From UHGV virus genome UHGV-0047852: a stretch of DNA of 11,553 nucleotides; one strand, written 5' to 3'. Below are positions 3,207 to 8,573 of this stretch, in pieces. The stretch's first letter is position 1. Each line of letters begins with the position of its first letter. Origin of the DNA: a virus. The notes beneath the pieces are model-generated. The model was not told where the DNA came from, searched no databases, and was given only the letters and a program-made list of their open reading frames with translations. The translations under genes and the position numbers were made by a program.

Positions 3207-3958
3207 TCACACTTCGAATGCCAGTTGAGGGGTAAAGACGTCCCGTTCAGCGTTGTAATTAAGTGAACTGGCACTGTTGAATGATTCAATGCGTTCCACA
3301 AGAACTTGCGTACGGGTTTCTTTACTTGCGGGAGCATATGGCGAACCTACCCAGGATTTGTCGATGCCTATATTTCTTGCGACGTTCGTGCTGTCTGCAG
3401 ACGAAAGCGGTACATGAGTAAAAATGTCTTTATTTAACATCCGTAACCCATGAATCTTGGTGATTGGGTAGCCGTACTGATCTACAACATGACGTATAAG
3501 ATCGCGTAGTTTAGCCCGACACGCTCTCGGTCGTTTTGCATCGTATTCCCCCATCGAGCCGATGCAGACGCGGGGAAACTCATGGCACAGACGAATAAAT
3601 CGCTCATCTGGTTCGTTCATGTGCCACACCGGAGCACCAATAAATTTACCGTGAGGCCATGCCGCAATCAGGGCGTCATTCTCTTCACTGGTTCCGCCGA
3701 TAACATCCGGGATAACCGCGAATGAGAAACGAGGGTGATTGCCCCAGCGTTCAACAAATTGTAATATTCATTCCAGTCTACGGCCTTGTTTTTTGTCCAG
3801 AATGTGAATGCACCATTATCAAGAGCAAATGATTGGGTGACTTCGGAAGCCAGATCAATCTGAGCTGGATTAGCAAAACTGATGAATGCGTGTCTGCCTT
3901 TCCAGGCTTTCAACGCACAGGTATCGGGAGTTATTGGACCACCGTGAAAATGAATCAT
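3207..3958 (-). pseudogene. Frameshifted gene for an unrecognised protein of about 250 aa (N-terminal part [31 protein letters not shown]…; C-terminal part …AVIPDVIGGTSEENDALIAAWPHGKFIGAPVWHMNEPDERF…QLAFEV) occupying the lambda orf63 position
   Basis: Two adjacent minus-strand ORFs (3668..3958 and 3207..3629) in different frames; extending the downstream frame upstream gives continuous plausible protein back to about 3768, so a single 1-nt indel near 3760-3770 would join them. The ATG at 3958 overlaps the orf60a-like stop (ATGA). Confidence 0.6.
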
Positions 3959-5950: not shown

Positions 5951-6157
5951 TTAGTGATTCAGGCCGTTACCGCGTCCGTCGAGAAAAACTTCCACGAGCA
6001 AATCACGGGTATAAGTGCGCTCGATGCCGCGATGCAGATAAAGCCGTCCGCGTAAATTAGCTGATGCAGTCCAGGTACCATCTTTGTGTTTGACCAGCAT
6101 TCCTGGCATGACCGCACCTCGATTAACGGTCTGCGTTCCGTAATGTTGATGAACCAT
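5951..6157 (-). CDS. Hypothetical small protein in the lambda kil position (68 aa from MVHQHYGTQTVNRGAV…; alternative upstream start at 6241 gives 96 aa)
   Basis: ATG at 6157 has AGGAG SD with 5-nt spacer; the protein does not resemble lambda Kil or cIII. Confidence 0.5.
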   Translation of the reverse strand: MVHQHYGTQTVNRGAVMPGMLVKHKDGTWTASANLRGRLYLHRGIERTYTRDLLVEVFLDGRGNGLNH

Positions 6158-6434
6158 AAAAACTCCTGCCCGTAAGCTGGGCTGCTGAACATATAAAGAC
6201 TTCTGCGCGTATTCAGGCGGTGGATGGCCGCCGGTTGTCATAACTAAGCCGCCTCGTTGAAGCGACTAAGGTATGAAATGTTGAGTTAATTTCAGCTGGT
6301 CACACCGACGTTCACGCGTCCGTTTCACCCCTCGCACTCCCCGAAGCCTGCTGAAATTCAAACTGCGGATCTAAGCGGTCATCGCAACGGTGAATCAGGT
6401 AGTTGCCGTATCGTTGTGTTGTTGCGATGAACTT

Positions 6435-6463
6435 ATTTAAAACTATAGTTGTTTTATCGTCAA
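6435..6463 (-). promoter_or_regulatory. Candidate leftward early promoter pL (-35 TTGACG, 17-bp spacer, -10 TTAAAT) embedded in operator repeats
   Basis: Minus strand TTGACGataaaacaactatagttTTAAAT is closely parallel to the PR element at 7491-7519 (TTGACTaaaaacaaccatagtttTAATCT). Confidence 0.5.
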
Positions 6464-6512
6464 CAACAAAAGTTGTTTTATTGGTTGTTTTAGATATAAC
6501 TGGTTGTATTTA
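6448..6512. repeat. OL operator repeat array: three direct copies of GTTGTTTTA (6448-6456, 6472-6480, 6484-6492) plus GGTTGTATTTA, sharing the GGTTGT half-site with OR
   Basis: Repeats visible directly; the same GGTTGT/ACAACC half-sites form a palindrome at OR. Confidence 0.55.
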
Positions 6513-6602
6513 GGATGGATTTATTTTGTGACTTGAATCGCATAGCGATAACTGAAGCGAGGTTATGGTGGTTTTTTTAACGGTGTGTGTGATGAGGGGA
6601 GG

Positions 6603-6631
6603 GCAAAAGAAAACCCGGCACGGTGACCGGG
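6603..6631 (-). terminator. Intrinsic terminator on minus strand downstream of the repressor gene (CCCGG-8 nt loop-CCGGG followed by UUUUCUUUUG)
   Basis: Plus strand GCAAAAGAAAACCCGGCACGGTGACCGGG; the reverse complement gives a hairpin plus U-tract about 120 nt past the repressor stop. Confidence 0.55.
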
Positions 6632-6752
6632 ATTCTTACGCCGTTAGGTAAAGATATTATTGCGGTGGCTTAATATTACTACCTAGAGCAAAGATAGGAA
6701 TTAGTTCTTTACTGAATGAGCACAATGCCCAGTTGATAATTTTTAATTGGTA

Positions 6753-7442
6753 CTACCCATGCTTCCTATATGTCTGCGGCATGCTCCCAATAACCTTACC
6801 GAAGATGAACACCCGGTTCATCTCGTCTTTCTCGATCGGGTCCCACGGTGAGTAGCTTTTGTTATCAGAGATGACCAGCAGCTTATCCTTCATCATTTGC
6901 AGGCGCTTTACATGGGCTGTGTCGTCGTACAGAAACGCATAGATACCATCACCGTCGAAAGATTTAACTGTGATATCAACGAACAGCAGATCACCTGGTT
7001 CGATCGTTCCTGACATGCTGTCACCACGCACGTTAATGATGCGGATATTTTCCGCCTTCCTACCATCGAACATGTGACGAGCATCGTCAAACGAGTACTC
7101 AACCGAGCGTAGAACTTCTACAAACTCACGGTTGATGACTCCCGGCCCAGCACTGACTTCTATATCAAGAACGTCAATCTTGAAGTATTTGGAATGGCTG
7201 ACAGTTGATTGTATTGGTTGCACTGTACTGTCTGACATATTTCCAACGCCAGAAGATAACCATTCTGCGCGCACACCCAAAGCGTTCGCGATCTCCACGA
7301 TTTTAGTTGTTTGATTAGCTTTCCCTGTTTCGATTTTCTGAATAGCAGCCTGGCTAACCCCGACCAAATCCCCAAGCGCCTTTTGTGTAAGGCCTCGCGC
7401 TAATCTGGCTTCTTTAAGTCTTTCTGAGAGTGTTGTTTTCAT
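6753..7442 (-). CDS. CI-like prophage repressor (229 aa; N-terminal XRE-type HTH, C-terminal LexA/S24 peptidase-like autocleavage domain)
   Basis: HTH region LARGLTQKALGDLVGVSQAAIQKIETGK; S24 signature GDSMSGTIEPGDLLFVD with downstream KRL. Start chosen at MKTTLSERLKEA (7442); the 251-aa track ORF runs into the operator. Confidence 0.85.
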   Translation of the reverse strand: MKTTLSERLKEARLARGLTQKALGDLVGVSQAAIQKIETGKANQTTKIVEIANALGVRAEWLSSGVGNMSDSTVQPIQSTVSHSKYFKIDVLDIEVSAGPGVINREFVEVLRSVEYSFDDARHMFDGRKAENIRIINVRGDSMSGTIEPGDLLFVDITVKSFDGDGIYAFLYDDTAHVKRLQMMKDKLLVISDNKSYSPWDPIEKDEMNRVFIFGKVIGSMPQTYRKHG

Positions 7443-7450
7443 AGTCCAAA

Positions 7451-7519
7451 TGTACAACCAAGGTTTTATTCCATCAAACGAAAATGGTTGTTGACTAAAA
7501 ACAACCATAGTTTTAATCT
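7451..7519 (+). promoter_or_regulatory. OR/PR region: 25-bp palindromic operator ATGGTTGTTGACTAAAAACAACCAT (7484-7508), extra half-site TGTACAACCA (7451-7460), PR -35 TTGACT (7491-7496) and -10 TAATCT (7514-7519); divergent PRM-like element for the repressor on the minus strand
   Basis: Perfect dyad symmetry, 17-bp spacer promoter, GGAGG SD before the cro-like ATG at 7547. On the minus strand TTGATG-17-TACATT ends 6 nt before the repressor ATG, suggesting a leaderless transcript. Confidence 0.65.
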
Positions 7520-7546
7520 TGATTCAAATTAACCACGGAGGTTGTT

Positions 7547-7777
7547 ATGAACCCAGCTATCAAAACAGCGATCAATATCGTTGGTTCACAAAAGAAACTG
7601 GGCGCTGCTTGCGAAGTTTCACAGCAGGCCGTCTATAAGTGGCTTCACAACAAAGCAAAGGTATCCCCTGAACATGTCGGCAGCATTGTTACGGCTACTG
7701 GTGGAGTAGTGAAGGCATACCAGATTCGCCCGGATCTTCCGAAGTTGTTTCCACACACCGAAAAGAACGCAGCTTAA
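7547..7777 (+). CDS. Cro-like small HTH regulator (76 aa, YdaS-like)
   Basis: Small HTH protein (GSQKKLGAACEVSQQAVYKWL) divergent from the repressor with strong SD; resembles Rac YdaS-type Cro from memory. Confidence 0.75.
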   Translation: MNPAIKTAINIVGSQKKLGAACEVSQQAVYKWLHNKAKVSPEHVGSIVTATGGVVKAYQIRPDLPKLFPHTEKNAA

Positions 7778-7846
7778 ATTTCCATTTCACGCTCTTTAAC
7801 AATAAGCAATCAACTTAACAGTCAATTCAAACTAAAGGAGTCAATT

Positions 7847-8173
7847 ATGCAACCACTTACATACCAACAGACTAGCGGATTTAGCCCGACTGCGGTGATA
7901 AATCGTTCTCAAACAAAACAGGTGCCAGGCCACGAAAAAATCCGTGATGCCGTCCGCGCCTGGTCGGCTGTAGATAATCAGGATGTCGTTGCCACACTCA
8001 TTGTGAATGAGTATCGGGAGCAGGGCGGCGGCACCATCGATTTCCCTGATGATGTCAGCCGTGCACGCCAGAAGCTGTTCCGCTTCCTCGATAACAAATT
8101 CGATTCTGAAAAATACCGAAATAATGTGCGTGAACTGACCCCGGCAATTCTGGCGGTACTACCGCTGGAATAA
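7847..8173 (+). CDS. YdaT-like (CII-position) protein, apparently C-terminally truncated (108 aa)
   Basis: Similarity from memory to Rac YdaT (motifs EYREQGGG and PAILAVLP); AAAGGAG SD. The ORF stops soon after the PAILA(V/I)LP motif whereas YdaT continues about 30 aa. Confidence 0.55.
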   Translation: MQPLTYQQTSGFSPTAVINRSQTKQVPGHEKIRDAVRAWSAVDNQDVVATLIVNEYREQGGGTIDFPDDVSRARQKLFRFLDNKFDSEKYRNNVRELTPAILAVLPLE

Positions 8174-8403
8174 AAGATGCTCTCAAACACACTTATCTCG
8201 GTTATGAAACCAAAGAACTGATTGATGTCGTAACCGGTGAAATCACCACCATTCAGTCATTACGTCATACCTCCGATCTCGATACCGGAGAGATGTATGT
8301 CTTCCTGTGTAAGGTTGAAGCCTGGGCGATGAATATTGGCTGCCACCTGACTATTCCGCAGAGCTGCGAGTTCCAGCTGCTCCGCGACAAGCAGGAGGCG
8401 TAA
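8134..8403 (+). pseudogene. 3' remnant of a ybcN-like nin-region gene lacking its 5' half and start codon
   Basis: Frame open from 8134 to the TAA at 8401-8403, which overlaps the ninE ATG (TAATG). Only an internal ATG at 8293 without a usable SD; position immediately before ninE matches DLP12 ybcN. Confidence 0.5.
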
Positions 8404-8573
8404 TGGCTACACCGCTTATTCGTGTCATGAACGGACACATCTACAGAGTATCTAATCGTCGTAAGCGTAAGCCTGAGCTGAAGCCATCCGAAATACCAAC
8501 ACTGCTCGGATATACCGCTAGCCTGGTTGATAAAAAATGGTTGCGACTGGCAGCAAGGAGGAATCATGGCTGA
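8403..8573 (+). CDS. ninE: NinE-like protein (56 aa, [56 protein letters not shown])
   Basis: Hand-translated (below track cut-off); shares the RRKRKP motif and C-terminal basic region with lambda/DLP12 NinE. Confidence 0.75.
   Translation: MATPLIRVMNGHIYRVSNRRKRKPELKPSEIPTLLGYTASLVDKKWLRLAARRNHG

Follow-up and report, generated by a model that had tools for sequence, protein, structure and literature searches.

A probable lambda-type immunity switch with 434-like operators in a DLP12-family prophage of Escherichia coli

The virus genome UHGV-0047852, a stretch of 11,553 nucleotides that was analyzed at full length and is here called the window (11.5 kb), contains a lambdoid prophage, as judged from its open reading frames (ORFs) and from family searches. 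The genes int, xis, exo, bet and gam and a gene for a Kil-type FtsZ inhibitor occupy the minus strand (Table 1). Past kil follow a repressor gene (cI) on the same strand and then, on the plus strand, a YdaS-family cro gene and a gene of the YdaT/CII family, beyond which lies the DLP12 right arm. Positions 6428–7546 are the immunity region of a DLP12-family E. coli lambdoid prophage. An earlier reading of the sequence, referred to below as the original prediction, had also called this an immunity region, in agreement with the presence of divergent cI and cro genes.

The region contains two clusters of putative operators, a left one (OL) at the predicted leftward promoter pL and a right one (OR) between cI and cro, at the predicted promoters PR for cro and PRM for cI. 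A search for ACAAC-N4-GTTGT with at most one mismatch returned five matches in the window, at 6439, 6463, 7454, 7501 and 7532, all of them within the two control regions. By chance, 0.41 such dyads are expected on average, and five were reached in none of 400 Markov-random sequences with the composition of the window; with local composition the chance mean is 0.035. With two mismatches, ACGAAAATGGTTGT at 7478 makes a sixth site. The putative operators are thus 14-bp dyads of the form ACAAC-N4-GTTGT, with OR3, OR2 and OR1 spaced by 24 and 23 bp and OL1 and OL2 by 24 bp. The expectation of GTTGT-type operators was borne out, the dyads being built on GTTGT.

We compared the two control regions with diverged relatives, consisting of Klebsiella phage ST101-KPC2phi6.1, Providencia phage PSTCR7lys and 44 loci from one-genome-per-species contigs, which were chosen by the peptide patterns VSQAAIQK and MKTTL[AS][EQ]RL. 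The resulting footprint set comprised 25 OR and 22 OL regions, the former from Escherichia, Klebsiella, Providencia, Kosakonia, Enterobacter, Brenneria, Serratia, Morganella, Xenorhabdus, Pantoea, Rosenbergiella, Arsenophonus, Erwinia and other genera. The cI recognition helix in the translated loci mostly reads VSQAAIQK, with VTQASIQK and VTQAAIQK in two and LSQAAIQK, SVSQAAIQK or VSQAAIQKL elsewhere. The ACAAC/GTTGT half-sites are kept in the 25 OR regions, while the central N4 varies freely, and even the weak left half of OR2 (ACGAA) is conserved. The geometry is also maintained: OR3 starts 11–13 nt from the cI ATG, and the distances of 24 bp from OR3 to OR2 and of 23 bp from OR2 to OR1 each recur in 22 of the 25 relatives. 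The 22 OL regions display AAAAC-N4-GTTGT as OL1 and ACAAC-N4-GTTGT as OL2, 24 bp apart in all but one (21/22), and TTGAC(A/G) lies between the two.

According to the original prediction, OR is a perfect 25-bp palindrome that overlaps PR. An inverted repeat at 7484–7508 does overlap the PR -35 element, and its 9-bp arms, ATGGTTGTT and AACAACCAT (7484–7492 and 7500–7508), are complementary at 9/9 positions, but the 7-nt centre, GACTAAA, is non-symmetric, so that the palindrome is not perfect. Nor is OR a single element of 25 bp, since it consists of three 14-bp dyads instead. Because the half-sites are kept, the N4 is free and the geometry is conserved, we interpret the palindrome as two facing half-sites, the right one of OR2 and the left one of OR1, with the PR -35 element between them.

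The alternative is that the operator at OR is the interrupted palindrome itself, GTTGT-N9-ACAAC on the PR -35 element, and that the GTTGTTTTA direct repeats at OL form an array of asymmetric sites that are bound in tandem. The perfect complementarity of the arms would fit this model, as would a similar outward pair around the pL -35 element (GTTGT at 6448–6452, ACAAC at 6463–6467), the occurrence of GTTGTTTTA three times and at OL only, and the conservation of direct GGTTKT copies beyond OL2. However, the gap of the outward pair is 9 nt at OR and 10 nt at OL, and with half-site centres 14–15 bp apart the outward half-sites do not share a face of the helix. Moreover, the best-conserved element of all is OR3 (perfect in 16/25 relatives), which is a stand-alone inward dyad without an outward partner and has an N4 of fixed length but free sequence (17 different ones). 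Relatives such as L105 and L007 do not retain the part of the palindrome that extends into ATG/CAT. Finally, the 434 repressor, which is the closest solved homologue, binds 14-bp inward dyads of the form ACAA-N6-TTGT. We consider the palindrome and tandem-array model very improbable.

The claim that OL is a run of direct repeats holds only in part. There are exactly three copies of GTTGTTTTA in the window, at 6448, 6472 and 6484, all within 45 bp (6448–6492). Two of these are the right halves of OL1 and OL2, which leaves the copy at 6484 and a variant at 6503 as free direct half-sites. Another claim, that pL shares a nearly identical core with PR, was confirmed: positions 6437–6455 are 95% complementary to 7498–7516 over 19 nt, and the match is extendable to a 29-nt arm pair at 72%. 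Read 5' to 3', the homologous cores are TTGACG-ATAAAACAACTATAGTTTT for pL and TTGACT-AAAAACAACCATAGTTTT for PR. The predicted promoter elements recur in the same register in the relatives, with TTGAC(A/G) as the -35 and a T/A-rich -10 in the 22 OL regions, TATTCT, TATATT, TATTAT or TATAAT at the PR -10, and TTG.. and TA..TT at PRM in the 25 OR regions.

A test case for specificity is offered by the heteroimmune phage 4A7 and its relatives, which have the cI C-terminal domain (95% DNA identity) and both OL flanks in common with the window. The recognition helix of 4A7 reads VAQPTIWR and its operators are ATACG-N4-CGTAT in identical geometry, a covariation from which we infer that operator specificity tracks the repressor protein. 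No OL was found in loci L124, L125 and L131 when 4A7-type OLs were searched for in other genera. Since 4A7 homology stops and resumes at the borders given in Table 1, OL and pL form a swappable cassette of 93 bp. The right-hand module begins within cI near 7205 (residue ~79) and extends across OR and cro. A 21-codon ORF at 6516–6581 on the plus strand was rejected as a gene, its ATG being located within the immunity-specific block and absent from 4A7. The sole match of a consensus promoter scan, TTGCGA-16-TATAGT at 6422–6449 (plus strand), points rightward through OL1, antisense to cI, and is within chance expectation.

Table 1. Features of the immunity region and its surroundings in the window; promoters and their start sites are predictions and operators are putative.
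Feature	Position	Strand	Description
int, xis, exo, bet, gam		minus	
Kil-type FtsZ inhibitor gene	5951–6241	minus	
5' stem-loop of the pL transcript	6380–6429	minus	9-10 bp stem CATCGCAAC/GTTGCGATG, 32-nt loop; identical in heteroimmune phage 4A7 up to 6427
Immunity-specific OL/pL cassette	6428–6520		4A7 homology breaks at 6428 (predicted pL start) and resumes at ~6520
Predicted pL	6434–6463	minus	-35 TTGACG (6463 to 6458), -10 TTAAAT/TAAATA (6440 to 6434); start ~6428, toward kil-gam-bet-exo
OL1	6439–6452		AAAACTATAGTTGT; 1 mismatch; between pL -35 and -10
OL2	6463–6476		ACAACAAAAGTTGT; perfect dyad, 0 mismatches; adjoins pL -35
Direct half-sites TGGTTGT	6482–6488, 6501–6507	plus	Start 12 and 31 bp from the OL2 right half; probable OL3-like auxiliary array
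Spacer between OL and terminator	6521–6613		Conserved in homoimmune and heteroimmune relatives (blastn)
Intrinsic terminator	6614–6631	minus	CCCGGTCACCGTGCCGGG then TTTTCTTTT; ends the cI(-cargo) operon
gevA-like antitoxin 3' remnant	6638–6711	minus	13-bp junction repeat AATTAGTTCTTTA at 6699–6711
cI-type repressor gene	6753–7442	minus	229 aa; HTH_3 and Peptidase_S24 (Pfam); recognition helix VSQAAIQK at residues 29–36
Predicted PRM	7449–7477	minus	-35 TTGATG (7477 to 7472), -10 TACATT (7454 to 7449); 6 nt from cI ATG
OR3	7454–7467		ACAACCAAGGTTTT; between PRM -35 and -10
OR2	7478–7491		ACGAAAATGGTTGT; adjoins PR -35; centred about -42.5 from the predicted cI start
Predicted PR	7491–7519	plus	-35 TTGACT (7491–7496), 17-bp spacer, -10 TAATCT (7514–7519); start ~7526
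OR1	7501–7514		ACAACCATAGTTTT; between PR -35 and -10
Fourth operator-like site	7532–7545		ACCAC-GGAG-GTTGT; 1 mismatch; cro Shine-Dalgarno core in central N4; roughly +6 to +20 of PR
Cro analogue gene	7547–7777	plus	76 aa; YdaS / P22-Cro family, PF15943 (E = 4e-17); PHROG 35
YdaT/CII-family gene	7847–8173	plus	PF06254 (E = 3e-12); PHROG 163, CII-like activator; truncated at 8172
ninE-ybcO-rusA-Q, then nmpC-type porin gene	past YdaT		DLP12 right arm

Analysis of the repressor protein confirmed the predicted S24 autocleavage domain (PF00717, E = 1.2e-18). In an alignment with UmuD, GDSM (Ser142) and VKRL (Lys179) fall on the catalytic Ser and Lys, and SAGPG gives Ala98-Gly99 as the predicted cleavage site. 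With cleavage and catalytic residues in place, RecA-stimulated self-cleavage is plausible. For the N-terminal domain, the best match in the PDB is the 434 repressor (E = 4.5e-9), which aligns without gaps at residues 5–68 versus 2–65. This alignment, starting at residue 5 versus 2, and the annotated start in PhiR26_1 and PhiR47_2 support the 229-aa ORF with its start at 7442; a 251-aa ORF reaching to 7508 was rejected, as it would run through OR. Within the cI coding sequence, ACGATTTTAGTTGT at 7297–7310 resembles OR2 (2 mismatches) and is identical to a site upstream of the divergent gene in the Pectobacterium locus L100, which may reflect coding constraint or chance.

The helix-turn-helix motifs of cI and Cro are 46% identical over 24 residues, and the recognition helices of the two proteins are alike within each immunity type (SQAAIQK and SQQAVYK here, AQPTIWR and AQPTVWR in 4A7), suggesting that Cro most likely binds the same dyads as cI. 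The order of YdaS and then YdaT downstream of PR corresponds to the YdaS/YdaT module, in which the two proteins are analogues of Cro and CII; these roles have been demonstrated experimentally in CP-933P (PMC8630535).

The immunity type is widespread. The identity of window positions 6200–7850 is 100% to Escherichia phage PhiR34_1, a plaque former that was propagated on K-12, and 99.9% to phage Turner; at least 80% of this segment was found in 1050 of 5426 complete E. coli genomes. Thus, the immunity type is common and is carried by phages that still grow. In a collection of phages, the N-terminal domain of the repressor was at least 99% identical in six phages and 60–80% identical in eight, all others being less than 60% identical. 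No classical phage was present among the megablast matches to the region, nor among the blastn matches to the segment covering the N-terminal domain, OR and cro.

The prophage as such is not intact. Homology to PhiR34_1 ends at 8172, within the cII/YdaT gene, and the break (8172–8530) leads directly into ninE-ybcO-rusA-Q-nmpC, with no O, P, ren or emrE/ybcK region. With cII cut at 8172 and O and P absent, we conclude that the prophage of the window is replication-defective. This raises the possibility that the immunity region is itself a decaying relic without present function, a reading that would fit the loss, relative to PhiR34_1, of the 3' part of cII, O, P, ren and more, and of a cargo cassette as well. 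The cI and cro ORFs are nevertheless intact, and neither the complete identity of the region to a plaque-forming phage and many genomes nor its frequency among the complete E. coli genomes agrees with decay. We regard the relic hypothesis as unlikely.

Two further sets of sites resemble the operators. The fourth site ends one base 5' of the cro ATG and has at most one mismatch in 20 of the 25 relatives, while the sequence between it and OR1 is fully diverged. Beyond OL2, GGTTKT occurs in 1–3 copies within 60 nt in 22 of 22 OLs and never in the opposite orientation. The offsets cluster at 6, 15, 25/26, 36 and 48 nt, close to a periodicity of ~10.5 bp counted from the right half of OL2. These half-sites could serve the repressor as auxiliary sites, produce phased T-tract curvature, or do both. 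The half-site array and the fourth site are probably auxiliary sites of low affinity.

It is also conceivable, although we lean against it, that neither set is bound by the repressor, and that the GGTTGT(T)n copies are curved DNA or a UP-like T-tract that stimulates pL and the site at cro is ribosome-binding-site context. Each GGTTGT copy is followed by a run of T at multiples of ~10.5 bp, which is the signature of phased A/T tracts. At the fourth site, GGAG occupies the N4, the right half doubles as the spacer that precedes the ATG, and the third base of the left half varies. On the other hand, the G-containing core GGTTGT, in addition to the T-run, is kept in 22/22 OLs in a single orientation and matches the right half-site of OL1 and OL2 with its flank. 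The left half 5' of the cro Shine-Dalgarno sequence becomes ATAC(C/T/G) in three independent loci with ATACG operators (4A7, Providencia and Rouxiella). Furthermore, four OR repeats have been footprinted in CP-933P, which also has a YdaS-type Cro.

Taken together, we consider it likely that the region is a bistable immunity switch of the DLP12 family, organized on the lambda plan with 434-like operators. In this model, a repressor dimer would bind the 14-bp ACAAC-N4-GTTGT dyads, and cooperative occupancy of OR1 and OR2 would shut PR. Repressor bound at OR2 would activate PRM, and occupancy of OR3 at high repressor levels would repress it. The cI gene would be expressed from a leaderless PRM transcript; with 6 nt between the PRM -10 element and the ATG, and no Shine-Dalgarno sequence, the cI mRNA is probably leaderless, as for lambda cI and paaR2. 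At the left end, OL1 and OL2 bracket the predicted -35 and -10 elements of pL and would repress the kil-gam-bet-exo-xis-int operon. Cro, acting on the same dyads, would shut PRM, and RecA-stimulated cleavage at Ala98-Gly99 would induce the prophage.

Several observations weigh against this reading. OR2 carries two mismatches and OL is without a third dyad. PR, pL and PRM all escaped the consensus promoter scan, and their -10 hexamers (TAATCT, TTAAAT/TAAATA and TACATT) match the consensus at 3–4 of 6 positions, which is the main weakness of the promoter model. At the fourth site, the variable third base (ACCAC or ACTAC) is seen in the Escherichia/Klebsiella group, and the right half is also constrained as the spacer from the Shine-Dalgarno sequence to the ATG. 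Searches of the literature, by phage names and on rdgA operators, yielded no experimental study of this specificity, be it of binding, transcription or induction. Lastly, given that the prophage is defective, the switch may serve superinfection immunity only.

More tentatively, the region may represent a variant of the lambda switch with an N-less early system, in which the phased half-site array replaces the third OL operator, lies on the helix face of OL2 and nucleates an OL-OR complex, and in which a fourth operator covers the cro Shine-Dalgarno sequence; we regard this extended version as doubtful. If it is correct, the fourth operator would allow the repressor or Cro to act on PR at two points, blocking it at the promoter itself and again a short way downstream.

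The switch was compared with the systems that it resembles most. The best solved homologue of its DNA-binding domain is the 434 repressor, and it shares with 434 14-bp operators with outer ACAA...TTGT and a non-contacted centre, three OR sites, and the Gln that starts the recognition helix (Gln28 in 434, Gln31 here). In contrast to 434, position 5 of the half-site is fixed (ACAAC/GTTGT), three of four compared contact positions are changed (Gln29 to Ala, Gln33 to Lys and Arg43 to Thr, from 434 to the window), and Cro is of the YdaS / P22-Cro type and no paralogue of the repressor. The outer ACAA/TTGT of imm434 is thus present, whereas its recognition-helix contacts and its type of Cro are not. 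We conclude that the immunity is neither imm434 nor any other classical immunity; it is well defined, and new within a known kind.

The features of a lambdoid CI/Cro switch are found here, namely divergent genes, a multi-operator region over both promoters and a second cluster of the same specificity on the leftward promoter. The resemblance to lambda comprises the divergent cI and cro genes, the tripartite OR with spacings of 24 and 23 bp, the location of OR2 at about -42 of PRM, the likely leaderless cI, the OL cluster on a leftward promoter for recombination and integration genes, the S24 self-cleaving repressor, and a terminator-closed slot between cI and OL for accessory genes expressed in the lysogen. 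The differences are that the dyads are 14 bp here and 17 bp in lambda, that OL has phased direct half-sites instead of a clear third dyad, that an extra site is located over the cro ribosome-binding site, that there is no N gene or nutL (only a boxA, after cro), and that Cro is a YdaS-family and CII a YdaT-family protein.

The PaaR2-YdaS-YdaT system of CP-933P (Sp12) is similar in its YdaS-family Cro and YdaT-family CII analogues, its leaderless repressor gene and its separate PL/OL, and also in its four intergenic repeats, two of which are conserved in one half only, and in its toxin-antitoxin cargo co-transcribed with the repressor (PMC8630535). It differs in that PaaR2 lacks an S24 domain and similarity to cI, and in its 18-bp repeats of the consensus GTTTAGTAA, which represent another specificity (PMC8630535).

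The early control region was examined for antitermination elements. A perfect boxA-type sequence, CGCTCTTTAACAA, is located at 7790–7802, just after cro, where relatives from other genera carry a boxA together with a boxB-like hairpin. In the window there was no second copy of boxA and no evident boxB hairpin, and no N-like ORF was seen between pL and kil. Thus, as pL and kil have no ORF between them and no boxB hairpin was evident after cro, the early operons appear to be without N, and lambda-type N/nut antitermination was not found. A segment of 61 bp just upstream of kil (6218–6278) is 85% identical to phi80 DNA directly downstream of the phi80 N gene, which suggests a lineage without the N segment that phi80 has. 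An HK022 put-like antiterminator was rejected, as there was no blastn match to HK022 22–32 kb and no second copy after cro. The stem-loop with which the predicted pL transcript begins may serve in 5' stabilization or in processing; the pL leader as a whole is not unusually stable (fold z = -0.54). An Rfam scan of the whole window at E <= 1 returned a single chance miRNA match and no known RNA element in the pL leader or in the gap between OL and cI.

This gap had been estimated at about 300 bp, and the distance from the end of OL2 to the cI stop codon is indeed 276 bp (6476 versus 6753). OL had also been described as unusually distant, which is not the case. Two IMG/VR scans gave only 100%-identical E. 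coli copies, which were used for gap statistics and not for covariation. Among 77 homoimmune IMG/VR prophages with an identical N-terminal repressor domain, the distance from the cI ATG to OL ranges from 961 to 3154 bp, and the window, with 962 bp, falls in the shortest class (24 loci). The distance from cI to OL is 800–3251 bp across genera, and in phi80, OL is located ~1.3 kb beyond cI. Based on these distances, the separation of ~1.0 kb between OR and OL is the minimal layout and not an outlier. In lambda, rexAB lies between cI and OL and looping is the norm. By this analogy, looping between OL and OR, if it occurs, would be normal lambda behaviour.

The gap itself is a deletion scar. Window positions 6200–6711 correspond to positions 1622–2135 of the PhiR47_2 locus, which reach 74 bp into the 3' end of gevA, and positions 6699–6794 correspond to 3501–3598, just downstream of the PhiR47_2 cI. 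The two matches overlap at the 13-bp junction repeat, so that 1365 bp, comprising the rest of gevA and gevT, are missing. The ~270-bp gap is thus what remains of a GevTA cargo cassette, with the terminator still in place. The same terminator is kept 3' of the cargo genes in PhiR26_1, PhiR47_2 and PhiR5_1, and in phages with other cargo the similarity to the window is lost right behind the terminator and returns at the cI stop codon. In siblings, the slot is occupied by BstA (7e-122), RexA (3.5e-115), RexAB, GevTA, PDC-M11A (GevT-like), PDC-S42, PDC-M63B or PDC-M66, and also by PD-T4-6/Stk2-like kinases, a lipoprotein or HipA-type toxins. Several cargo ORFs in loci L011–L089, for example the 340-aa ORF of L049, had no match in PADLOC.

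The closest named relative is the probable RdgA of Pectobacterium, RdgA being a DNA-damage-responsive regulator of pectin lyase. A chromosomal repressor gene is present in every Pectobacterium species representative (loci L092–L103); its N-terminal domain is 72–75% identical to that of the repressor in the window, and the helix GVSQAAIQKIE is identical. A site reading ACAACCTAGGTTGT is located 11 nt from the start codon, as is OR3 here, and a second ACGA/ACAA-N-GTTGT site lies ~100 bp away. The Pectobacterium genes differ in having a diverged C-terminal domain and a partner gene other than cro, and they lack an OR1/OR2/PR arrangement. The coding sequence matching the cI segment in Erwinia phage phiEt88 is annotated as rdgA. 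The Pectobacterium loci are probably rdgA, a naming that rests on the literature, and their sites would then predict the RdgA operator.

These results do not overturn the lambda paradigm. They define, at the sequence level, the operators, promoters and module boundaries of an immunity type that is present in about one in five complete E. coli genomes, which makes it possible to predict homoimmunity among E. coli prophages and to design reporters and induction-proof mutants. The same operator code can be read across relatives in the Enterobacterales, including the probable RdgA regulon of Pectobacterium. Finally, genes for defence and toxin-antitoxin systems that are expressed in the lysogen concentrate in the slot between cI and OL (6614–6752), a hot spot in which new ones may be sought.

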